A DNA stretch of 64,000 nucleotides from Candidatus Adlerbacteria bacterium RIFCSPHIGHO2_12_FULL_53_18 (GCA_001775475.1 MEWW01000010.1:5143-69142), one strand, 5' to 3'. Shown: positions 13,009 through 64,000, counted from the stretch's first letter. The notes: generated by a model from the sequence alone, not told the origin. Made by a program: numbers and translations.

Positions 13009-14523
13009 ATGGTTACCGCCAAAGAGATAATCGAGGCGATGGGGGCGCCCAGCCAAGAAGACAAGGCGCTGGTGGAAAAGGCATACAATTTTGCATTAAA
13101 AGCCCACGAGGGGCAGAAGCGCTTTTCCGGCGAGCCTTACATGGTGCACCTGGGGCGCGTGGCGCGCAGCATCGCCGAGTTGGGCTTGGGTAGCAAAACA
13201 GTTGCAGCGGCGCTCCTACACGACACTATAGAGGATACCGAGGCAACAGCTGAGCAACTAGAAAAGGAATTTGGCAAAGAAATCTTATTTTTGGTTGAAG
13301 GTGTTACCAAGCTCGGCCACTTGAAGTATCACGGGGTCGAGCGCCACCGGGAGTCCCTACGCAAACTCCTGGTTGCCACGGGACAGGACGTCAGAGTGCT
13401 TATCATCAAGCTCATGGACCGGCTCCACAACATGCGCACGCTTGAACATGTCCCTAAAGAAAAACAGCAGCGCATTGCACTCGAGACGTTAGAAATTTAT
13501 GCCGCTATCGCTCACCGGCTCGGCATGGGCGTCGTGCGCAAAGAGCTCGAGGACCTCGCCTTCCAGTATGCGTACCCTGAGGAGTACGAAAATGCCAAAC
13601 GCCTTTTGACCGAAAAAACGCAGGAGACTACAGCGCGGCTTGAGGGCATGCTGCGCGACCTCAAAAAAGAGCTTGCTAAGGACGGTTTTACCAAATTTGA
13701 GAGTGACTTCCGGGTTAAAGGCCTCTGGAGCCTCTGGCAAAAACTCAAACGCAAGGAAGGCGACATTAGCAAGGTCTACGACATCGCAGCAATACGTATC
13801 GTGGTTGACGACGTCGCTGACTGCTATCGAGTGCTTGGCATAGTTCACAACCTCTGGCAGCCCTTGGTCGGTAAAATAAAAGACTACATCGCCTTCCCTA
13901 AGCCCAACGGCTATCAGTCGCTGCATACCACCGTTTTCTCCGGCGACGGTGGCATTGTCGAAGTGCAGATCCGCACTAAGAGCATGCACCAGGAGGCGCT
14001 CTTTGGCATAGCGGCCCATGTCTCGTACAAGGAGCCGGGCGCAGCGGCAGGCAGAGGCTCGAGTTTCGACTGGATCAAGAGCTTAATTCCCGGTTTCTCA
14101 AGCAAAACTGTGCCACCACCCAAAGAGGCACCGGCGCACTACGGCTCCCAGGTCCCCGAGTGGCTGAGCGCCTTGAGTGAACACGAAACCGACGACCCCG
14201 ACTTTGATACAACGTTAAAGACAGATATTTTCTCTCACCGCGTGTTCGTCTTTACCCCCAAGGGCGACGTGGTTGATCTCCCGGTTAAAGCTTCGCCCGT
14301 CGACTTTGCCTATGCAATACACTCCGATCTCGGCAACCACGTGTTTGGCGTCAAGGTTAACGGCAAGATGGTGTCGCTCAACACTGTGCTCCACAACGGC
14401 GACATCGTGGAGATAGACACACGAAAGTCTGCACATCCAACCAAGAAATGGCTGGACTTCGCAAAAACGACGCTCGCCCGCCGGCATATCCGGAACGCAA
14501 TCGGTGAAGGCGTAAAAAACTAG
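13009..14523 (+). CDS. short RelA/SpoT-family (p)ppGpp synthetase/hydrolase (HD + synthetase + TGS domains; no C-terminal ACT/RIS region)
   Basis: HD motif ALLHDTIEDT. Synthetase block DIAAIRIVVDDVADCYRVLGIVHNLW...GYQSLHTTV. TGS domain VFVFTPKGDVVDLPVKASPVDFAYAIHSDLGNH. The ORF ends right after TGS at 504 aa. Confidence 0.8.
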   Translation: MVTAKEIIEAMGAPSQEDKALVEKAYNFALKAHEGQKRFSGEPYMVHLGRVARSIAELGLGSKTVAAALLHDTIEDTEATAEQLEKEFGKEILFLVEGVTKLGHLKYHGVERHRESLRKLLVATGQDVRVLIIKLMDRLHNMRTLEHVPKEKQQRIALETLEIYAAIAHRLGMGVVRKELEDLAFQYAYPEEYENAKRLLTEKTQETTARLEGMLRDLKKELAKDGFTKFESDFRVKGLWSLWQKLKRKEGDISKVYDIAAIRIVVDDVADCYRVLGIVHNLWQPLVGKIKDYIAFPKPNGYQSLHTTVFSGDGGIVEVQIRTKSMHQEALFGIAAHVSYKEPGAAAGRGSSFDWIKSLIPGFSSKTVPPPKEAPAHYGSQVPEWLSALSEHETDDPDFDTTLKTDIFSHRVFVFTPKGDVVDLPVKASPVDFAYAIHSDLGNHVFGVKVNGKMVSLNTVLHNGDIVEIDTRKSAHPTKKWLDFAKTTLARRHIRNAIGEGVKN

Positions 14524-15482
14524 ATAGAAAAACTGCTCGGGTTGAAGGTGTTTTCATCTATCGTCTTTTCCTCTGCCGGTCGGTCGTCAACGGGTGTGTC
14601 CGGAGCCGCTGTGTCCGAGGGCTTTTGTTCCTGAGATTCCGGCGAAGTTCCGGTAGCTCGCGCCTGCAGCGCCGCAAAGAGAGCGCGCAGGTCTTCTTCA
14701 GTCATGTAGTCAATCGAGAGCTTGCCGCCTTTGTCTTTAGGCTCAATCACGACGCGCGTGCCAAGAGCCGTTGCCAAGTCGCGCTCCATTTCCAGCACCT
14801 CCGGCGAAAAGAGATATTCCTTTTTGCGTACGCGGTCAACCGCAATCCGCCGCGCGATATTTTCCGAGTCGCGCACAGTGAGCTTCTTGAGCATGATTTC
14901 CTTAAAGAGTGTCTGCTGCTCGGCAGGGCGGTCAATAAGCATGAGGAGCGGCCGCGAGTGACCCTCCGAAATCTTGCCGTCTGTCAGAGCTTGCTGCATC
15001 TCTGGCGGCATCATAAGGAGCCGTACCGTATTGGCGACGTACTCGCGGCTCTTGCCTATCTTTTCTGCAATCTGCCCATGCTTAAAGCCGAACTCGTCGT
15101 GCAGCCGGTTAAAGGCCGTTGCGCGGTCCATGGGGTTGAGGTCCTCGCGCTGGAGGTTTTCGATAATAGCGAGCTCGAGCTTGGTTTTATCGTCGTCATC
15201 CACCTCGCGTATGAGGGTCGGCACGGTAGCAAGCCCCGCAATCTTTGCAGCGCGGAGCCGCCGCTCACCCGCCACGAGTTCATACTCGGTCGCGATGCCG
15301 CCATCGGGTTTTTGCACCTCCTGGCGGTTGACAGTTAAGGGTTGCAAAATACCGTACTGGCGTACCGAGCGCGCCAGGTCGTTAAGTTTATCTTCGTCGA
15401 ACTCTCGCCGTGGCTGAAAAGGGTTCGGTTTTATCTTGTCTACCTCAACCCAAAAAATAGCGTTGTTGTAAAACCCTGCCAT
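14520..15482 (-). CDS. parB: ParB/Spo0J-like partition protein with an acidic/Pro-rich C-terminal tail
   Basis: ParB N-terminal box GILQPLTV, ELVAGERRLRAAKIAG, HTH region. The start is set at ATG 15482 because the longer listed ORF would overlap tRNA-Leu. No parA is present in the window. Confidence 0.75.
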   Translation of the reverse strand: MAGFYNNAIFWVEVDKIKPNPFQPRREFDEDKLNDLARSVRQYGILQPLTVNRQEVQKPDGGIATEYELVAGERRLRAAKIAGLATVPTLIREVDDDDKTKLELAIIENLQREDLNPMDRATAFNRLHDEFGFKHGQIAEKIGKSREYVANTVRLLMMPPEMQQALTDGKISEGHSRPLLMLIDRPAEQQTLFKEIMLKKLTVRDSENIARRIAVDRVRKKEYLFSPEVLEMERDLATALGTRVVIEPKDKGGKLSIDYMTEEDLRALFAALQARATGTSPESQEQKPSDTAAPDTPVDDRPAEEKTIDENTFNPSSFSI

Positions 15483-15506
15483 GTCGCCCCATTGTATCAA
15501 ACTTTG

Positions 15507-15587
15507 TGCCGGAGGTGGGACTCGAACCCACACCCCTTGCGGGACACGATTTTGAGTCGTGCGCGGCTGCCATTACGCCACTCCGGC
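15507..15587 (-). tRNA. tRNA-Leu (anticodon CAA)
   Basis: 81-nt GCCGGAG...CACGA CTCAAAA TCGTG, long variable arm TCCCGCAAGGGGTG, GTGGG TTCGAGT CCCAC, CTCCGGC-A. Confidence 0.8.
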
Positions 15588-15665
15588 TTGATAATTACTG
15601 TACCCTACCCTGCCCAAAATCTCTATGGTAGTGTGGCAAAGGCACGAACCTTGAGGAGAAAACCG

Positions 15666-16388
15666 ATGCCAAAAACCGGACTAATTTTCGCCTACGATTT
15701 CAGCACCTTCGACGACAAGGCCGCTTTGCTCAAGGAGATTGCATCGCATGTTGACCTCATCAAGGTCGGCCTGCAAGCAATAACGGCACTTGGCCCGGAG
15801 CACGTGAGTATTGCGTACACAGTCCAGAGCTTCACAGGGACAGTCCTGCAAAAAAAGGTGATGTGGGACGAGAAACTGCTCGACATCGGCAACACGATCG
15901 AAGGTGCAGCGAAGAACATTGCTCTGCTTTCAAGCGTGAGCCTCGCTACCCTACATGCCCAGATGAGCACCGCAGGGCTTCAAGCAGTTGTGCGAGCCTG
16001 GGAGGGTAAGATCACTCCTCTCGCGGTAACCGCCCTTACCGACCTCGACGACCAGGCGTGCTGGGACAGATTTCGTCGCGATGCCGCCCAGACCGTTATT
16101 GATTTCGCCAAGATCGCGTACAGCAACGGCATCCGCGGTTTTGTCTGCTCGCCTCACGAAGCACGAGAGATCCGCAACAGGTTCTCCGATGTTACTATCG
16201 TGACGCCGGCGATTCGCCCCCTGTGGGCAGTTGCCAAGGACGAGCAGAAGCGGGTCATGACACCGACCAAGGCTGTACAGGCAGGCGCCGACTATATTGT
16301 GGTTGGGCGGCCGATCTCAAAGCCACCCGAGGGCAAAACCTCCGAACACGCAGCACGCGAGATCCGTGAAGAACTCGAGGCGGCGTAA
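15666..16388 (+). CDS. pyrF: orotidine 5'-phosphate decarboxylase
   Basis: GAGGAG RBS then ATG. DFSTFDDKAALLKEI...DLIKVGL, KLLDIGNTI, VCSPHEA, VTPAIRP, TPTKAVQAGADYIVVGRPI. The 5' extension in the ORF track overlaps the tRNA and was rejected. Confidence 0.7.
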   Translation: MPKTGLIFAYDFSTFDDKAALLKEIASHVDLIKVGLQAITALGPEHVSIAYTVQSFTGTVLQKKVMWDEKLLDIGNTIEGAAKNIALLSSVSLATLHAQMSTAGLQAVVRAWEGKITPLAVTALTDLDDQACWDRFRRDAAQTVIDFAKIAYSNGIRGFVCSPHEAREIRNRFSDVTIVTPAIRPLWAVAKDEQKRVMTPTKAVQAGADYIVVGRPISKPPEGKTSEHAAREIREELEAA

Positions 16389-16490
16389 TTGTCTCGAAAC
16401 GAACGTGCGCCGGCCACTTGTGGCCGGCGTTTCTCTTTTTGCTTAAAAATGGTAGGTTTTGTGCGGAACTGAACAAATGGAGACACGCTC

Positions 16491-17198
16491 ATGAAAGTTC
16501 CTTCAGGACGTATTTTCTACCAGCCCGATCTCAACATCATGCGGCTTGCCGCGCACGTTGGCTTCGTCAGATGGTACGACGAGGCTCGCACCCTTGCCTC
16601 AGGTCGCGAATCGCACATTTACGTTGAAGGTCGCCAGGACACGACTGAGAATCCGGCATTCCTCGACCTCGTGTGCAGGAAAATTCTTCAAGATACAAAC
16701 GCCATCATGGCGGAAGACGAGGACGATCGAAGGGCGCGATTCATCGGTATCCCCCATGTCGCCCATGGGTGGACGCCCGCGATCACCATGGTCGATTTTC
16801 ACTCCAAGATCACGCCTCACGGTGCCTGTCATGCAATCATGCGTTCCGAGCTCAAGGAACATGGCGGACGTAAGGGCAAGTGGGTTGCTGGCAGTCCTCA
16901 ACCAGGGAAGTATCGCGATTTTCTCTTCGACAACGTCGTGACCGACGCAGGAAGTAAGCAGACCGCTCTGAGCCATCTGATCGAAGATGGATGGCGGTCA
17001 GACCAGATCGACACGATGGTCTTCGTCGATCGTCAGCAAGGCGGACTGACAAATATGGAACAGTTGGGGTTCCGTCGGGTCCACGCATGCTACTTCCTGC
17101 TCGACATGACGTTTGCGTTTCGCGAACTCGGGCTCTGGCCAGCAGATGCGGTTGAGCGGGTCGAAGAAGAGATTGCTGCTCATCAACTCGCCAAGTAG
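16491..17198 (+). CDS. pyrE: orotate phosphoribosyltransferase-like type I PRTase
   Basis: PRPP-binding loop FLFDNVVTDAGSKQTA and VFVDRQQGG (PyrE VDReqGG). Lies directly downstream of pyrF. Confidence 0.6.
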   Translation: MKVPSGRIFYQPDLNIMRLAAHVGFVRWYDEARTLASGRESHIYVEGRQDTTENPAFLDLVCRKILQDTNAIMAEDEDDRRARFIGIPHVAHGWTPAITMVDFHSKITPHGACHAIMRSELKEHGGRKGKWVAGSPQPGKYRDFLFDNVVTDAGSKQTALSHLIEDGWRSDQIDTMVFVDRQQGGLTNMEQLGFRRVHACYFLLDMTFAFRELGLWPADAVERVEEEIAAHQLAK

Positions 17199-17206
17199 CC
17201 TTTGTA

Positions 17207-18184
17207 ATGCGCGTCCTCGCCCCCACCCAGGGCGAGGCGCTTTCTTTTTTTCACTATCCGCGCTACAAGTGTCTTGTGCCTACTCGTAAAATCATCGCCG
17301 TTGTGGGCCCCACCAGCTCGGGCAAAAGTGCCTTGGGCATTTACCTTGCGCAAAAGCTCGGCGGCGAGGTTATATCCGCCGACTCGCGGCAGGTGTACAA
17401 AGGGCTCGACATCGGCACCGGCAAAGTAACGAAGAAAGAAATGGCGGGTGTCCCTCACCACCTGCTTGATGTCGCATCGTCCAAGAAAGTCTTTACCGCC
17501 GATGATTTTGTAAAGAAAGCGGAGCGGGTAATAAATACTTCGATATATCGAAGTATTTTGCCTATTATAGTTGGCGGCACGGGGTTTTATGTAGACGCGC
17601 TGCTCGGAAGGCTCGTGATCCCGAATGTGCCTCCCAATCCTGCCCTGCGCGCCAGGTTAGAAAAAAAGAATATTGAAGAGCTTTATACTATGCTGAAGAA
17701 AAAAGACTTTGCGCGGGCAAAGACAATAGAACCTAAACACAAACGGCGTATTATACGAGCAATTGAAATTGCCACGGCGCTTGGGAAAAACCCCACGCCC
17801 GCTAAAAATGAGAAGTATGAGGTGCTCTGGCTCGGTCTCTCCCCCGCCCCTGCTAAACTAAAATCAAATATTCATAAGCGCCTTCTGGCACGGATGAAGC
17901 AAGGCATGATTGCCGAGGCAAAGCGGCTACACGCGCAAGGTCTCTCCTACAAGCGCATGGAAGAACTGGGCTTAGAGTATCGGGCGCTTGCGCGGCACCT
18001 CCAGGGTAAAACTACCCGGGCAGAAATGTTGGCCAAACTTGAGCGCGAAATAAATAAGTACGCCAAGCGGCAAATGCGCTGGTTTAAGCGCAACAAAGAT
18101 ATCCGCTGGGTCGGAGACAAAGCGGAGGCTCTAAAGCTGAGCGAGGCATTTTTACAGGGTCGCATTCGTAGAGTATCTTTATAA
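17207..18184 (+). CDS. miaA: tRNA dimethylallyltransferase
   Basis: IIAVVGPTSSGKSALGIYLAQKLGGEVISADSRQVYKGLDIGTGK (P-loop), DPKH-like region. The exact start is uncertain (GTG/TTG alternatives near 17276). Confidence 0.8.
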   Translation: MRVLAPTQGEALSFFHYPRYKCLVPTRKIIAVVGPTSSGKSALGIYLAQKLGGEVISADSRQVYKGLDIGTGKVTKKEMAGVPHHLLDVASSKKVFTADDFVKKAERVINTSIYRSILPIIVGGTGFYVDALLGRLVIPNVPPNPALRARLEKKNIEELYTMLKKKDFARAKTIEPKHKRRIIRAIEIATALGKNPTPAKNEKYEVLWLGLSPAPAKLKSNIHKRLLARMKQGMIAEAKRLHAQGLSYKRMEELGLEYRALARHLQGKTTRAEMLAKLEREINKYAKRQMRWFKRNKDIRWVGDKAEALKLSEAFLQGRIRRVSL

Positions 18185-19682: not shown

Positions 19683-20900
19683 TTATTGCAAAATTATACT
19701 CCTCGCGTTTGCCACGTTAGGTACGTACGAACGGGTTTCGGCGTAGCCCGAGTTTGCCGTACACTGCCACCAGGTTTGGCCCGGACAGTCGAAGCTTCGG
19801 TTATTTGCTCTGGGGCCTCCATTGTACGCTGCTATCGTGTTGGTACTTCTGCCAAACTGGCCTTCCATTTGAGTTAAATATTTAACGCCAAGCGTCATGT
19901 TGTAGACAGGATCTTTCAAACGAGCGGTGATTTCCGAGTTCGACAGCCCCGCAAGAGACGAGTCGAGCCCCCTTGCAGTGTCAGGGCATACCTGCATTAA
20001 CCCGACACAGCGGGCAGGGCTCACCGCCCCCGCGTTGCCGTTAGACTCAATCGCCATCACTGCTTGTGCCATTTCACAGTCACTGTAACCCTGCTGTCTG
20101 CAAATGGTCTGCAGTTGTGCGGCATACTGGTTAGTGCCTTGTATTTTTGCCTCAAGCTGGGCGACAGAGAAGATGCGTGCGTTCGGGTCGGTGGTGAGCG
20201 GCCCGGTTAAGCCTGCGGTCGTGGACACGATAGTGGGTTCGACTTGGTCGCAAGCTTCTTGAAATTGACATGAAGAATTAACACAGACTTGCTGCATCTG
20301 GTTGTACTTGTATCCATTGGGACATGTGACTTGTATGACACTGCCTGGTGACGACCCTGAGGGGGCCGAAATGGCTTTAATTGGAAGAGGGGTGGTTGGA
20401 ATAACCTCGCCAAGAAGATCACTCAAACTTGCGTTTCTTAAGCGCTCTTCCCTGCTGCACTGGAGTTCGTTCCAGCTACCTCCTATCCAAAAGTCCTGGT
20501 CAAACACGACGCTCAGCAGAGTCTGCACAACAAGGTAGGCTGAAATCGCGATTAAAAAGCCGATGAGTACACTTTTAAATATCTTATGTGCCTTGCTTAT
20601 CTGAGTGGGGTTTGAGCCTCCGGTCACATAGAGAAACCCGGCATAGGCAAACATTGCCGCCGCGACTGAGACTGAAAGTCCGATAAGGAAGTTGATAATG
20701 TTCTGCATCAACTGCCCCAGGCTGCATAGATCGCAACCTGTAGTTGTTCTTATGTATTCGCTGTAAGCGGGAGTATTCTGTTCTGGTATCGGCCCTTCCC
20801 ACACTCCACAAGGGACTAACCCCTGCGCGTCCGCAATCAGAGGAATGGAGAGCCACAACAATGCAGCTACAAAAAAGAGCAAAGCACGCTGCTTTTGCAT
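19683..20900 (-). CDS. fusion protein: VirB2/TrbC-like pilin module (signal peptide + two TM helices) + Cys-rich linker + family-1 lytic transglycosylase (SLT) domain
   Basis: Signal peptide ending ADAQG. TM1 INFLIGLSVSVAAAMFAYAGFLYV, short loop, TM2 SVLIGFLIAISAYLVVQTLL, the same layout as the 32.2-33.7 kb pilin paralogs. C-terminal SLT motifs AIESNGNAGAVSPARCVGLMQV (catalytic Glu; ES..S.AxGLMQ) and AAYNGGP. Confidence 0.6.
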   Translation of the reverse strand: MQKQRALLFFVAALLWLSIPLIADAQGLVPCGVWEGPIPEQNTPAYSEYIRTTTGCDLCSLGQLMQNIINFLIGLSVSVAAAMFAYAGFLYVTGGSNPTQISKAHKIFKSVLIGFLIAISAYLVVQTLLSVVFDQDFWIGGSWNELQCSREERLRNASLSDLLGEVIPTTPLPIKAISAPSGSSPGSVIQVTCPNGYKYNQMQQVCVNSSCQFQEACDQVEPTIVSTTAGLTGPLTTDPNARIFSVAQLEAKIQGTNQYAAQLQTICRQQGYSDCEMAQAVMAIESNGNAGAVSPARCVGLMQVCPDTARGLDSSLAGLSNSEITARLKDPVYNMTLGVKYLTQMEGQFGRSTNTIAAYNGGPRANNRSFDCPGQTWWQCTANSGYAETRSYVPNVANARSIILQ

Positions 20901-58930: not shown

Positions 58931-59200
58931 CTATTCGTAAATATCATGGGTACCTATTTGAAAAAATCGAGCAATCTTTCCTTCTTCTGAATCCTCGATA
59001 ATGTCAAAGATAATGCGATACGAATATGTAACTGAAAATGCAGATAGGCCTTCCATTTTCCCTGTAAGCTTATGAACTCTCAGGCGTGGGTCGAAGGGGT
59101 TTTGGGCAAAAATTTTCGTCTTTTTCTTTGCGATTTCACGAATATCGGAGGGTGTTTTCTTATATTGTCGAAGATAGAGCGGAGAAAAGAAAACCTCCAT
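58931..59200 (-). CDS. type II toxin, RelE/ParE family
   Basis: 89 aa. ...NPFDPRLRVHKLTGKMEGLSAFSVTYSYRIIFDIIEDSEEGKIARFFQIGTHDIY matches the RelE/ParE C-terminal core (YRiiY.i.d.....i..ig.H..Y). Confidence 0.6.
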   Translation of the reverse strand: MEVFFSPLYLRQYKKTPSDIREIAKKKTKIFAQNPFDPRLRVHKLTGKMEGLSAFSVTYSYRIIFDIIEDSEEGKIARFFQIGTHDIYE

Positions 59201-59210
59201 GGAATGCCTG

Positions 59211-59426
59211 TTATCTAAGCTCTTTGAGGGAACTTAGACGCTTCCAGGTTTTTTTATTGAATGTCCTTTTTTGTTCCTGTAACTCCTCCGCAAGTTTGCG
59301 ACGCTTTTCCTCCCGCAAGAGGTAGCGGAAGAACTCGCTGACAGAGGCAAACCCTTCTGCACGCGCTACACGTTTTGCTTCTGCGGCGGTTTCTTTGGGT
59401 ACGGATATGTTAAGAATGGTTCTCAT
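59211..59426 (-). CDS. type II antitoxin, ribbon-helix-helix (CopG/ParD-like)
   Basis: Start at the internal ATG (MRTILNISVPKETAAEAKRVARAEGFASVSEFFRYLLREEKRR...). RHH N-terminus. Lies 10 nt upstream of the toxin gene. Confidence 0.55.
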   Translation of the reverse strand: MRTILNISVPKETAAEAKRVARAEGFASVSEFFRYLLREEKRRKLAEELQEQKRTFNKKTWKRLSSLKELR

Positions 59427-59544
59427 AGCTGTATTACAAAGTATATACACCTACCCGCACAAAGTCAATTTTGCAATACTTACGCCTCAACCCACTGTCT
59501 CGAAGACTCCCAGTACACACCAAGAATATAGTCGTAAAGCCTCC

Positions 59545-60840: not shown

Positions 60841-60883
60841 AATTTTTAGAAAAAGAAAATGCCGGGCCCAAAAATGGCCCGGC
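60841..60883 (-). terminator. rho-independent terminator on the minus strand
   Basis: gccgggcc-caaaaat-ggcccggc hairpin. The minus-strand read-out is followed by attttctttttctaaaaatt. Confidence 0.55.
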
Positions 60884-61145
60884 CCTGTTGCCTGACTATA
60901 GTACCCCTCCCTTCCTCTTGATGCAAATCAGGGCTCTGTGGATATCTCCCGACGCTTTGGTCGGGACCCCGACCGGGAGCGTCGGGGTTTAATCGCCTAC
61001 TAAAAGAATTCCAGGCTGCTAAATATGGTCAGCTTGCCCGGATATTACAAGAGTTTTCTAAACTCTTCTTCGGTTAAGCCGGCTTGTTTTATTATTTGTT
61101 TTAAAAGGGAGCGTTTTATATCACCCGGGTGTATAGGAACAGAGG

Positions 61146-61343
61146 TCACAAGGCGCTAACGGGAATTTGCTCTCCATGCTTAACTAATGTGTCCAAGTAT
61201 CCCTCGATAGCATCCTTTGCCATCTCCCTAACCTCGTCGAGCGACTCCCCTTGTGTGAGACACCCGGGCAGTGCAGGAACCTCGGCCCAGTAGCCGCCCT
61301 CCTCTGCCTTATGTACTCGCACCGTATAGTTAAACACCTTCAT
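61146..61343 (-). CDS. hicB: HicB-family antitoxin (UPF0150), apparently without an adjacent HicA
   Basis: MKVFNYTVRVHKAEEGGYWAEVPALPGCLTQGESLDEVREMAKDAIEGYLD matches the HicB consensus (..DGGY.A.VP.LPGC.TQG.TLEEA..NAKEAIE.YLE). The start is set at ATG 61343; the ORF-track start is GTG 61352. Confidence 0.6.
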   Translation of the reverse strand: MKVFNYTVRVHKAEEGGYWAEVPALPGCLTQGESLDEVREMAKDAIEGYLDTLVKHGEQIPVSAL

Positions 61344-61463
61344 ACCCGACACTATACCACAACTTCTCCAACGACGTGAGGTTTAGCCTCACGAGTTACA
61401 GTCACGCTCCATGTGCACAGCATGAACGACTTACGAAGTCGTTCATTTAGACACCGAAGCGGC

Positions 61464-61979
61464 TTACCAATCTGCAGCCCCTTGCGAATAGACTGAACAA
61501 AACGTGTGTTGTGATTCGGTTGTCCGGCGAGGGTCGGCAAAATTCTGGCCTAGCTTGCATTTAGTCCCTACTTCGGCGCTCCAGTCGGTGGAGAGTTTGT
61601 AATTGGTCCCATTAGATCTATAAATGTAGCCCTTGAAAGATCCCCCGCTGACGCAGCCCGATGGGTCTGTGGGAAGAACTGCGATATACGCTGGAGCCAG
61701 GTTAGGGACATAGCCATTCGCGCCGCTTGTGTCGCGTGGTGTCGGATCGGCGCCGTTGGTACAGACCGTCCACCAACTGCCGCCCGTTGATGGGTAGGAA
61801 CCATTGTCGTTATAGTAGAGCTTCAAGCCAATATCCACGTTAATCAAATCTGAGTATCGTTTTGCGTCTCGAGACTCTTTGCGAGAGCTACCGAGACCAG
61901 CGACGACAATGGTTGAAAGAATGCCGATTATCCCAACCACAACCATAAGCTCAACTAGCGTAAAGCCGCGTACGTGCAT
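61464..61979 (-). CDS. type IV pilin / pseudopilin (class III signal peptide)
   Basis: Prepilin peptidase site MHVRG/FTLVELMVVVGIIGILSTIVVAG. C-terminal globular domain with Cys pairs. 171 aa. Confidence 0.7.
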   Translation of the reverse strand: MHVRGFTLVELMVVVGIIGILSTIVVAGLGSSRKESRDAKRYSDLINVDIGLKLYYNDNGSYPSTGGSWWTVCTNGADPTPRDTSGANGYVPNLAPAYIAVLPTDPSGCVSGGSFKGYIYRSNGTNYKLSTDWSAEVGTKCKLGQNFADPRRTTESQHTFCSVYSQGAADW

Positions 61980-61984
61980 GTAAT

Positions 61985-64000
61985 TTACTGTATCACCGCA
62001 GCAACATCTGTTTCAACCTGAGATGAAGGAGAACTTTCTTCTTCGCTCTCCTCCACTGTCGACTCTTCCTCATTCGTCTCTTCTGGTGCCGGTGCTTCCT
62101 CTACAGGCTCACTTGGGGTTGACGGAGCAACATCTTCTACAGTCGGTTCTTCTATTTCATCTGCTTCTTCCGGCGCTCCGGCGGGCTGAGCCTCTGGCGG
62201 CGGTTCCGATTCTGCTTGCGGTGAGCTTGTCGAATCCGGCGCGGGAGAGGGCGCGGGAGCTGGTGCGGGCGTACTCGAGCCACCCGCAGCCGCAGATTGG
62301 GATCGCAAATCGAGAAGCTGCTGCAGTTCGGCTTCGTTTACGCAGGTTGCGCCGACGCACAACTCGTCGGTGCGCACACGCTTTGCAAAGAAATCGGCGA
62401 TGCCGTTGCCAGCGTCGGCGAACCATTGTGTGAGGCGGGTGAAGAGGGAAGAAAAGAAGCGGGACGGGAATGAACCTTGCTCGGTTGCTGGCGTCGTCGT
62501 CGCGAGGTCTTCGAATTTAAGGTTGAGTTCTTGGATCGCCTTGGCAAGGAGCGCGGTGAGGCGCTCGTACTTTACGCCTTGGAGCTCTCCTGTTTCGTTA
62601 TCGTAGCGGGCAAGAAGCGGACTGACGGCGACGATTTCCTCGGCGATAAAGCCGAGGTCATGCTCGCCTCCGAAATCCTCTCTCCAATCGAACTCGCGAG
62701 GAGTTAGCGCAAGGACCGCATCGAGACCGAGAGAAATGTCCTCCACGTTCTCTTTGTACTGCGCAAGCGACGTGCAGTCGCCGTACAAAGACCCACCCGC
62801 GCCGTCCCAGCAGAGGGGGTCAGCTCCGACAGCTGTGTTGGTGAGCACATACAGAGTGCCCCCGACCGTAAGAAGTCCTTCGGTCGGCGTTGTGTCATTG
62901 ATGCCGACGTTGCCGGTGGAGTTGATGGTCACCTTTTCCGTGACCCCGCTTATGTCCCCTGACCCCGTGTAGAGCGAGATGCCGGACGCGCCTGCGACGA
63001 TCGCGTTGCCGTTCAAGACCGCGAACTCCGCGTGCGTCCCGCTTCGTGTGATGCGGATACGGCTTGTGGCAGCTGTCGTGCCGTCGACATGGAGAGCAAC
63101 TGCTGGCGAGGTGGTGCCGATACCGACGTTGCCTGAATAGTCAATCGTCATCGCAGTGTTGGTGATACCACTGGAGTATAGATTTGAAGTGCCGAAGTGG
63201 AGATAACTACCGCTTGAGGTGACTTGAGATCCGATGCGAGCTTTCGGAATCCCATGAGAACCAGCGGATACGGCACTGCGGCTTGCAAAGTCGAGCACTG
63301 TGTACTGGTTGGAGCCCGTATCCGCTTGAATTCTCAAGTGTCCGTCAGTCGTGCCGGTGAAAGTTGAGAGAGCGGTCCCCTCGATATTAAGTTTAGTTTC
63401 CGGCGTCGTGGTGCCGATGCCGACGTTGCCGGCGTTGTCTATTCTCATGCGCTCGAGCGCTGCACCACCAGCGTTAGGGCGCGTGATGAATTGCAGGTTA
63501 CCACCCCACGTCCCGGTCTTTGTGCCAGTTATTAAAGCCGCGCGTTCTCCGGTGTTATTAGAATCAGCAAATGCAATCCCATTATTAAACGCGTCGAAGT
63601 CCGTACCGATGGAATGCGTACTACCTGAAAATAATAGGTCGCCAAGATCTATCTGTAGTTTTGCCTTTGGACTCGTCGTCCCGATGCCGACGTTGCCGTC
63701 GTCTATGACGAGCCATGTATTTGCATCACCGCTTCCTTCACCGAATGCGATGGTGTTGTCGGAAGCGGTGGAAGCGCCGTGACGAAACTCGATCCACGAT
63801 TGTGCGGAACTATTATCGTCGATTGACGCTTCAAGTCGAAGTGCGCTGTTGTGCCATGAATTGTCGCGCGTCGCATGTGCTCGCGTAACGATGTCGAAGT
63901 AATTGTTATTGGCGCCATCGACAAAATTGTCTCTGAAACGCGCAAGGAGCGTCTCGCTATCATCGGCAAGCGCAAGCGCGTTTGTTCCATGAACATGGAG
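61985..64000 (-). CDS. large secreted tail-fibre-like protein with repeated (I/V)DxxGNVGIGTTSP units, a C-terminal S74-type intramolecular chaperone domain and an acidic Pro-rich tail; the N-terminus lies beyond the window edge
   Basis: The ORF track starts at Met 63448, but the same frame is open upstream to position 64000 (...LHVHGTNALALADDSETLLARFRDNFVDGANNNYFD...ALERMRIDNAGNVGIGTTTP). Three GNVGIGTT(S/T)P repeats. Chaperone-domain pattern CWDGAGGSLYGDCTSLAQYKENVEDISLGLDAVLALTPREFDWRE...GFIAEEIVAVSPLLARY...KYERLTALLAKAIQEL. Confidence 0.55.
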   Translation of the reverse strand, partial: LHVHGTNALALADDSETLLARFRDNFVDGANNNYFDIVTRAHATRDNSWHNSALRLEASIDDNSSAQSWIEFRHGASTASDNTIAFGEGSGDANTWLVIDDGNVGIGTTSPKAKLQIDLGDLLFSGSTHSIGTDFDAFNNGIAFADSNNTGERAALITGTKTGTWGGNLQFITRPNAGGAALERMRIDNAGNVGIGTTTPETKLNIEGTALSTFTGTTDGHLRIQADTGSNQYTVLDFASRSAVSAGSHGIPKARIGSQVTSSGSYLHFGTSNLYSSGITNTAMTIDYSGNVGIGTTSPAVALHVDGTTAATSRIRITRSGTHAEFAVLNGNAIVAGASGISLYTGSGDISGVTEKVTINSTGNVGINDTTPTEGLLTVGGTLYVLTNTAVGADPLCWDGAGGSLYGDCTSLAQYKENVEDISLGLDAVLALTPREFDWREDFGGEHDLGFIAEEIVAVSPLLARYDNETGELQGVKYERLTALLAKAIQELNLKFEDLATTTPATEQGSFPSRFFSSLFTRLTQWFADAGNGIADFFAKRVRTDELCVGATCVNEAELQQLLDLRSQSAAAGGSSTPAPAPAPSPAPDSTSSPQAESEPPPEAQPAGAPEEADEIEEPTVEDVAPSTPSEPVEEAPAPEETNEEESTVEESEEESSPSSQVETDVAAVIQ

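Follow-up and report, generated by a model that had tools for sequence, protein, structure and literature searches.

What is a gene for a tail-fibre-like protein doing beside a type IV pilin gene in a bacterial genome, and does it serve the cell that carries it or has it been left behind by a phage? The question is raised by a stretch of 64,000 nucleotides (nt) from Candidatus Adlerbacteria bacterium RIFCSPHIGHO2_12_FULL_53_18 (GCA_001775475.1, MEWW01000010.1:5143-69142), referred to below as the window, at the far edge of which a large reading frame on the minus strand is cut off. The original prediction described its product as a tail-fibre-like protein with an S74-type intramolecular chaperone (ICA) domain and offered two interpretations, a recognition module made up of fibre and pilin, or a prophage or tailocin remnant. 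The sequence elements it listed were all found where it had placed them, with three corrections; of its interpretation, the S74 tail-fibre-like surface protein has stood, but neither the prophage remnant nor the fibre-pilin module has. We consider it probable that the gene encodes a membrane-anchored, tail-fibre-like surface fibre belonging to the cell itself, in Patescibacteria of the Paceibacteria type (Kaiserbacteria and Adlerbacteria bins). A role in surface or host recognition, which had also been suggested, is plausible and is the best available reading by analogy with the mosaic adhesive trimeric (MAT) fibres of Bdellovibrio. As far as the searchable literature shows, the domain architecture and the family lack a prior description, and no publication linking S74 domains or tail fibres with Patescibacteria was found there; the gene itself is already public under generic names, as a 'hypothetical protein' of Candidatus Kaiserbacteria (OGG49101.1) and, in UniRef, as 'Peptidase S74 domain-containing protein'.

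Between positions 61985 and 64000 of the minus strand, on which all the window features with coordinates given below also lie, the frame comprises 672 codons with zero stops. It had been predicted to be open to the window edge and truncated there, with the Met codon at 63448 internal, and this was borne out, as the frame continues upstream of that codon to 64000. The N-terminus was regained from matching contigs, for which the exact downstream pilin served as the look-up key and six independent loci (L001-L006) were returned. The complete gene, carried by four of these contigs (L001, L002, L004 and L005), is 4,176 nt long and encodes 1,391 amino acids (aa), with its start 2,160 nt past the window edge. 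Because the pilin-matching contigs give this full-length gene, the window can be said to hold its 3' part (48%), that is aa 721-1391 and the stop codon. In the 2,016-nt overlap with the window L002-L006 are identical to it and the remaining one of the six loci differs by a single base; the part between 63448 and 64000 has no stop codon, and five contigs are identical to the window there. Assembly breaks fall inside the gene in L003, in L006 and in a 69.6-kb contig binned as Candidatus Adlerbacteria, at the end of which lies a 771-aa truncated copy (P0122), and such breaks are consistent with strain heterogeneity. The ATG is supported because the helix-turn-helix (HTH) domain encoded directly behind it is conserved in relatives. 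In L002 (5775-5819) it lies 9 nt past a perfect 12-bp hairpin resembling the terminator of lepA, and there is no obvious Shine-Dalgarno sequence at this start.

The S74 domain occupies aa 1131-1220 (62501..62770) and was identified by Pfam, by profile comparison with the PDB and by a Foldseek search with an AlphaFold2 (AF2) model. The match to the Pfam family Peptidase_S74 (PF13884) has 33.8 bits, where the cutoff is 22, and an E-value of 4.2e-8 (32.6 bits with the full-length protein). A profile of the region matched a putative phage tail fibre (8jov, 2.4e-13), the distal subunit of a long tail fibre (6f45, 2.5e-10), the ICA domain of MyRF (7dc3, 2.4e-8) and the L-shaped tail fibre pb1 of phage T5 (8hqz, 5.8e-6). 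The model of aa 1092-1291 has a predicted local distance difference test (pLDDT) score of 84-92 across most of the S74 core, and its eleven best matches in the PDB are all ICA structures, among them 7dc3 (probability 1.0, E=1.1e-3), 3gw6 and 3gud. The domain was therefore correctly named and located, but it had been taken to form the C-terminus, whereas about 170 aa follow the core and 210 aa follow the Pfam match.

An autoproteolytic site is predicted at the start of this domain (62753..62770), where a cut between T1130 and S1131 would be made by a dyad of Ser1131 and Lys1136. The two residues, five apart, are invariant in 10 of 10 and 11 of 11 aligned homologues, and Ser1131 aligns with residue 1 of the released chaperone of GA-1 (3gud). 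A Ser-Lys dyad with the same spacing is indispensable in MyRF and endoNF, where the cut is made on the N-terminal side of the Ser and requires the trimer (PMC8326128). Just before the predicted cut lies the Cys-bracketed loop CWDGAGGSLYGDC (aa 1117-1129, C1117 to C1129; 62774..62812), of which both Cys residues are invariant in the four closest homologues and common across the wider set, and which we infer would form the distal tip of the mature fibre. In some relatives the S74 domain lies far from the C-terminus, with as many as 1,939 aa after it, or occurs twice in one protein (L062, L088, L070-L073, L117, L121; P0271; P0018), and a possibility is that these are polyprotein-like fibres cut into several pieces.

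Upstream of the chaperone, from aa ~147 to 1130, the protein is a Ser/Thr/Gly-rich shaft of low complexity with seven GNVGIGTTxP turns, four of which lie in the window. At least three repeats of the form (I/V)D-x-x-GNVGIGTT(S/T)P had been claimed for the window, and the count there is three exact copies and one degenerate. The exact copies are the fourth, VIDDGNVGIGTTSP (63668..63709), the fifth, IDNAGNVGIGTTTP (63401..63442), and the sixth, IDYSGNVGIGTTSP (63104..63145); on inspection of the motif the seventh, INSTGNVGINDTTP (62885..62926), reads GNVGINDTTP at its centre. The tail-fibre-like character of the protein is supported by matches of the repeats to PHROG tail-fibre families (9942 at 9e-26 and 18345 at 4e-20) and to MAT fibre structures. 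The best solved-structure matches of the shaft are not phage proteins at all; they are Bd2133 of Bdellovibrio and its relatives (8ond at 6.8e-11; also 8ojn, 8ol4 and 8oml), and the motif aligns with beta-helix turns of Bd2133 (8ond) in three stretches (E=6.8e-11), which is a match of sequence and not a model of the trimer.

The shaft appears to be the changeable part of the molecule. A relative, P0001, is ~100% identical to the protein over aa 490-1020 and is unrelated to it from immediately after the sixth repeat (GNVGIGTTSPA), which is accordingly a mosaic junction; at its N-terminus P0001 bears a classical signal peptide in place of the HTH domain and transmembrane (TM) segment. The orthologue P0176 (in L141) aligns with the protein at the two ends only, with 32% identity (E=5e-20) over the N-terminal HTH and TM segment and 34% identity (E=2e-25) over the C-terminal S74 domain, Cys module and tail, and the intervening shaft of about 1,000 aa cannot be aligned. 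Alignments of this kind point to an exchange of shaft and tip by recombination at the repeat motifs, with conservation of the ends, which is the pattern expected of a receptor-binding protein.

At the N-terminus, aa ~15-90 are predicted to form a winged helix-turn-helix of the HTH_17 or excisionase type followed by a long helix. The AF2 model of aa 13-90 (pLDDT 75-92) has the order strand, helix, helix, beta-hairpin wing and long helix, and its Foldseek matches, namely 4j2n (Pukovnik Xis; probability 0.99, 1.8 Å), 6ama (BldC), 4pm3 (TraN) and 8dgl (RdfS), are all winged helices of the excisionase or MerR type. A PDB search with a three-sequence N-terminal profile gave no match. HTH_17 was found by Pfam in 11 of 26 long relatives (best E 1.3e-13) and in L031 (E=0.004), and it is because of these matches in relatives together with the predicted fold that the module is assigned to the HTH_17 type. 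No N-terminal signal peptide was found, the first hydrophobic segment of the protein coming after the folded 90-aa domain; this segment, aa 120-146, is the single one above a Kyte-Doolittle value of 1.6 and is predicted to span the membrane. A different domain, Phage_int_SAM_1 (42 bits against 22.3), occupies the position before the TM segment in L015/L018, and the presence of two unrelated folds at this position argues that the pre-TM domain has a function. The protein concerned (L015, 4181-11725; also L018 and L092) is an S74 fibre of 2,514 aa with its TM segment at about aa 226, and although L015/L018 are labelled Pseudomonadales, their neighbourhood (in L015, three pilins in the style of the candidate phyla radiation (CPR), Obg and an M23 peptidase) looks patescibacterial.

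Beyond the S74 domain the chain ends in two further elements. The first is a two-cysteine module, WFADAGNGIADFFAKRVRTDELCVGATCVNEAELQQLLDL (aa 1246-1285; 62306..62425), in which Cys1268 and Cys1273 are invariant. Its consensus is W..A.NGI..FA..V.T..LCV..CV..QL, in which a Leu and the two Cys (L176, C177 and C182 of the fragment) do not vary among 11 sequences; the model shows a beta-hairpin and a helix, a fold for which a Foldseek search found no match in the PDB. The second is a low-complexity tail rich in Pro, Glu, Ser and Ala (aa 1287-1391; 61988..62302), the acidic character of which had been correctly described: in the last 105 aa there are 27 Asp and Glu, 19 Pro and 17 Ser residues, and zero Lys or Arg. 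Tails of 70-170 aa are found in all homologues bearing the Cys module.

The size of the family to which the protein belongs depends strongly on how it is sought. When the N-terminal 320 aa were used in a word-indexed search for homologues, only two relatives were returned. An exhaustive hidden Markov model search of 1.84 billion cluster representatives with the three-sequence N-terminal profile yielded 4,414 proteins at E<=1e-3, of which 402 reach E<=1e-10; in the proteins found, the HTH module sits N-terminally in proteins of 71 to 7,214 aa. Among the 34 top matches of at least 1,000 aa, a single hydrophobic segment follows the HTH within the first 350 aa in 26, an S74 domain is present in 20 and the Cys module in 24, five of the latter being without S74. 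A separate Pfam census of 26 long members found Peptidase_S74 in 16 and HTH_17 in 11, and the alignment consensus of these 26 reproduces the whole layout of HTH, anchor, shaft, S74 domain, Cys module and low-complexity tail. Where the sources give names they are 'tail fiber domain-containing protein' or 'helix-turn-helix domain-containing protein', and the organisms named are Candidatus Paceibacterota or Kaiserbacteria. On a 722-kb contig from the Joint Genome Institute (JGI) that looks patescibacterial (L139, 1-21742) at least four S74 proteins are encoded next to one another, including a 5,104-aa protein with LVIVD and S74 domains and two HTH-TM-fibre paralogues (P0153 and P0147), with Gmad2-domain genes interspersed. 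The contig also encodes a 336-aa S74 protein with a Pfam match to Shufflon_N (PilV-type), which was considered as a fusion of pilin and S74 and rejected, since its hydrophobic signal-anchor is not accompanied by a G|FTLxE motif.

S74 fibre loci are common in cells (52 in a collection of genomes at species level, over 80 in metagenomes), but outside Patescibacteria (e.g. in Bacteroidota, Acidobacteriota and Planctomycetota) nearly all of the genes start with a plain signal peptide. The terminal modules also separate cellular from viral sequences. Neither the HTH nor the Cys module was found in any of 75 S74 open reading frames (ORFs) on viral contigs, whereas among 128 S74 fibre ORFs at cellular loci the HTH is present in 3 and the Cys module in 13; seven of these 13 are in genome loci, all of them from Patescibacteria, and six are in metagenomes and carry no taxon label. 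Distant relatives occur in 80 genomes of isolated phages, the best having 29.8% identity over 60% of the query.

Judged from sequence, the closest characterised cellular relatives appear to be the Bdellovibrio MAT fibres, specifically their S74 subgroup. These are surface-displayed trimers, of which 13 of 21 end in S74; self-cleavage has been demonstrated for one, Bd3182, and deletions affect prey entry (PMC10769870). The present protein resembles them (Caulton et al. 2024) in being encoded by a cell, in an organism depending on other bacteria, and in having a length of about 1,000 aa, a tail-fibre-like shaft with xGNVGIGTxxPxxxL turns, a C-terminal S74 domain and mosaic, swappable tips. The differences are equally clear. 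MAT fibres begin with a signal peptide, followed by a conserved N-terminal domain that is rich in beta structure and about 130 aa long (PMC10769870), whereas for this protein an HTH_17-type domain in the cytoplasm and a TM anchor are predicted; its S74 domain is followed by a two-Cys module and a long acidic tail, its motif reads S-L-x-x-x-K and not SDxxxK, and its source is a presumed monoderm Patescibacterium. Patescibacteria are absent from the MAT paper and from its supplementary list of MAT-like proteins, and no HTH-TM anchor is described there (PMC10769870).

With phage fibres and tailspikes (the K1F endosialidase 3gw6, T5 pb1 8hqz, GA-1 3gud and S16 gp37 6f45) the protein shares the S74/ICA domain, recognisable from both sequence and fold, and the Ser-Lys dyad, and the phage ICA fibres, like the model proposed here, have a trimeric fibre upstream of that domain. 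Unlike them, it is encoded outside any module of virion genes and carries an S74 domain that is not terminal, and a membrane anchor and a cytoplasmic domain are predicted for it; its identity to the fibres of isolated phages does not exceed 30%. MYRF (7dc3), which gave the best ICA fold match, is similar in combining a DNA-binding-type domain, a single TM segment and an S74/ICA domain in one chain. The order is nevertheless different: in MYRF the DNA-binding domain and the ICA precede the TM segment, so that cleavage frees the DNA-binding domain, whereas here HTH (15-90), TM (120-146), shaft and ICA (1131-1220) follow one another and cleavage would free the chaperone and tail only, and the DNA-binding fold is a different one. 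A MYRF-like release of the HTH by S74 was accordingly ruled out, because the membrane lies between the two domains and S74 cleavage cannot free the HTH from the opposite side. Regulators of the ToxR/CadC type are presumably alike in having an N-terminal cytoplasmic winged helix, one TM segment and an extracytoplasmic domain, and we take them to differ in that their winged helix-turn-helix is of the OmpR type and not HTH_17, and in being small globular sensors and not fibres of 1,200 aa.

The surface fibre may be envisaged to work as follows. The hydrophobic segment would act as a signal-anchor, leaving the HTH in the cytoplasm and exporting about 1,245 aa. Three S74 domains would then associate and nucleate folding, by which the shaft would become a trimeric beta-helix, and after trimerisation each would cut its own chain at T1130|S1131 by means of the Ser1131-Lys1136 dyad, freeing an acidic fragment of 261 aa with an isoelectric point of about 4. 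What stays tethered to the cell would be a mature fibre with chains of about 985 aa, which, scaled from the ~550-Å model of the 922-aa Bd3182, would be tens of nanometres long. Its tip would expose the Cys-bracketed loop, and the fibre would bind a surface structure of a partner or host cell.

A number of points tell against this proposal. In the canonical motif SDxxxK, which here reads S-L-A-Q-Y-K, the Asp is replaced by Leu, and this makes competence for cleavage uncertain; the position is Leu or Ser in the closest patescibacterial homologues, Asp is kept in P0034 and P0176, and the Asp is outside the set of residues mutated in the MyRF study (PMC8326128). The segment at aa 120-146 is only moderately hydrophobic (Kyte-Doolittle 1.84). 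The Foldseek E-values of the N-terminal domain are weak (0.08-0.6), and the N-terminus of the protein itself falls below significance in Pfam, which returned HTH_59 only (E=0.02-0.23). The structure predictions are of monomers and of the two ends of the protein, and every step, from topology and trimerisation to cleavage, surface display and binding, is inferred. The proposal also presumes a partner or host cell, and a cytoplasmic domain of DNA-binding type has no obvious role in a fibre that is purely adhesive.

The chromosomal setting of the gene is that of the core functions of a cell. An Rfam search of the whole window returned 14 tRNA genes and nothing else, and the proteins encoded include TopA, RelA/SpoT, ClpB, IF-2, GyrA, PurB, FtsA, FtsZ, signal peptidase and S1, as well as TsaD, a class I aminoacyl-tRNA synthetase, PrsW, Hsp20 and glutaredoxin. 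Past the window edge the fibre gene is preceded by LepA, MurJ and a TPR protein. Neighbouring phage structural genes, the presence of which was to be looked into, were not found, and neither were genes for lysis or integration, within 10 kb on either side (Pfam, 30 neighbouring genes and the upstream flank). In L141, from a related member of Paceibacterota, the same frame is seen: TPR, MurJ and LepA are followed by the fibre gene (P0176), of the same architecture as the window protein and in the same chromosomal position, and at a greater distance by a DivIC-like gene, glutaredoxin, Hsp20 and PrsW. Directly after its fibre gene L141 has a TM protein and two secreted proteins of ~700 aa with Laminin_G_3 (concanavalin-like lectin) domains (13389-17602), and it seems that the slot downstream of the fibre gene holds a variable cargo of surface proteins across lineages.

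In the window this slot holds the pilin. It is a type IV pilin or pseudopilin of 171 aa (61464..61979) with the leader MHVRG|FTLVELM and four Cys in its globular part, and its identification directly downstream of the fibre gene was sound, the leader being canonical and the matches to N_methyl (PF07963, 29.4 bits against 21.2) and TIGR02532 (28.1 against 16.3) lying above their cutoffs; a GspG-like match of 45.5 bits lies below its own. The pilin gene starts 5 nt past the fibre stop codon (TAAattacATG). The leader is the sole prepilin motif in the 64-kb window, where neither a prepilin peptidase nor pilus assembly genes were found. Next comes hicB (61146..61352), encoding 65-68 aa that comprise the N-terminal HicB-like domain only (PF15919, 46.6 bits against 27, profile positions 1-58 of 123; PF21748, 36.6 bits). 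This HicB had been called an orphan; the HicB is real, but it is followed by a truncated hicA remnant (61045..61152) ending in VPIHPGDIKRSLLKQIIKQAGLTEEEFRKLL and a stop codon, which matches PF07927 with 27.8 bits against 27 over profile positions 34-58 of 58 only and has an in-frame stop directly upstream. Because of this remnant hicB is not truly an orphan, and the HicAB pair is better regarded as decayed. The first strong terminator-like hairpin, found by a consensus scan, lies after hicB (60861..60883; eight G-C pairs and a T run) and there is none between the fibre and pilin genes, so that with a gap of 5 nt co-transcription of fibre, pilin and hicB is likely in this lineage. To the eye, the spacer that separates the hicA remnant from this terminator (60890-61040) looked rich in nested G+C hairpins; it has no Rfam match and no ORF.

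Two other loci in the window are recorded here as observations in their own right. A second toxin-antitoxin pair (58931-59450) lies 2 kb from the fibre locus, between a tRNA-Arg gene and glutaredoxin; its antitoxin is small and of the RHH (CopG) type, and its toxin is weakly similar to YafQ/RelE. A protein of 405 aa (19683-20900) has matches to T4SS_pilin (31.2 bits) and to the SLT lytic transglycosylase (69.2 bits) and is likely to belong to the type IV secretion system of monoderm type that has lately been described for Patescibacteria.

How do the other explanations of the fibre gene compare with the one preferred here? That it is a remnant of a prophage, tailocin or other phage-derived element in the chromosome is very improbable and largely refuted. 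The matches to PHROG tail-fibre families, the fact that S74 is typical of phage fibres, the distant relatives in isolated phages and the decayed toxin-antitoxin pair that adjoins the locus would all fit such an origin, but a remnant does not sit well with a gene that is intact on four contigs, has no phage genes within 10 kb and keeps its position in L141, nor with terminal modules that were found in 0 of 75 viral-contig S74 ORFs. The proximity of the pilin might suggest instead that the fibre works with, or is mounted on, a type IV pilus as one unit. The 5-nt gap with no intervening terminator speaks for this, as do a looser association in other loci, where fibre, gapA, rpiB and a similar pilin follow one another (L008 and L009) or pilins lie within 3 kb of the fibre gene (L034, L015 and L089), and a report on cultivated Saccharibacteria, which describes type IV pili as driving host binding (PMC12206443). 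A pilin directly downstream of the fibre gene was, however, found in 0 of 130 other loci (52 genome and 80 metagenome loci were scanned for prepilin motifs), and the frequency of a pilin within 3 kb, 4 of 108 de-duplicated loci against 1.6 expected, is not significant (P=0.07). Since the L141 orthologue has no pilin at this place, the window has no pilus assembly genes and the fibre has a predicted membrane anchor of its own, a pilus-associated adhesin is decidedly unlikely; on the locus scans a fibre-pilin module was rejected as a general feature, and the link to the pilin is specific to this lineage.

A structural fibre of the envelope or glycocalyx, or a shed protein, which recognises no partner and serves for spacing, protection or as a phage decoy, would account for a shaft that is Ser/Thr/Gly-rich and of low complexity, and the occurrence of cellular S74 fibres outside Patescibacteria means that they are not restricted to parasites or predators. 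Hypervariable shafts and tips between conserved ends, with tips swapped at the repeats, are nevertheless typical of receptor-binding proteins, and the closest characterised cellular family affects the handling of prey (PMC10769870), which leaves this explanation quite unlikely. Rather unlikely too, but compatible with an adhesive role, is a contact sensor or membrane-tethered regulator, in which the fibre would be the extracellular sensor of a single-pass signalling protein, like ToxR in its topology and like MYRF in its use of S74. Binding or pulling of the fibre on contact with a host would alter the activity or the release of the cytoplasmic HTH_17 domain and thereby gene expression. The conservation across a large family of an N-terminal HTH_17-type domain before a single TM segment argues for it, as do the second lineage with the unrelated DNA-binding-type domain Phage_int_SAM_1 in the same position and the activation by S74 of the membrane-bound transcription factor MYRF in eukaryotes (PMC8326128). 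With the TM segment between HTH and S74, however, release would require a further protease acting within the membrane, and the locus has no such gene linked to it. There is also no DNA target on record, and the HTH_17 fold is found outside transcription factors as well. A wider form of the same idea, that Patescibacteria possess a large family of single-pass 'fibre receptors', so far undescribed, in which a tail-fibre-like, S74-matured ectodomain of variable specificity is wired by one TM helix to a cytoplasmic domain of DNA-binding type (HTH_17 or, in the other lineage, an integrase SAM-like domain), is unlikely to a similar degree. If it were true, one molecule would both make contact with the host and report it to the genome, and the family would be a prokaryotic counterpart of MYRF with a different topology.

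To our knowledge, the means by which the ultra-small CPR bacteria (Patescibacteria) locate and cling to the host cells on which they depend are largely unexplained, and type IV pili alone have been implicated, in a few cultivated Saccharibacteria. The cell-encoded surface fibre favoured here would add a second candidate class of host-attachment determinant, in the form of a large chromosomal family, probably membrane-anchored, with hypervariable shafts and tips. It would also offer handles for its study, in the predicted self-cleavage site and in swappable tips that could predict host range, and the cytoplasmic HTH might link contact to gene regulation. Annotations of 'tail fiber' and S74 in CPR bins would, by themselves, be no signal of a prophage.

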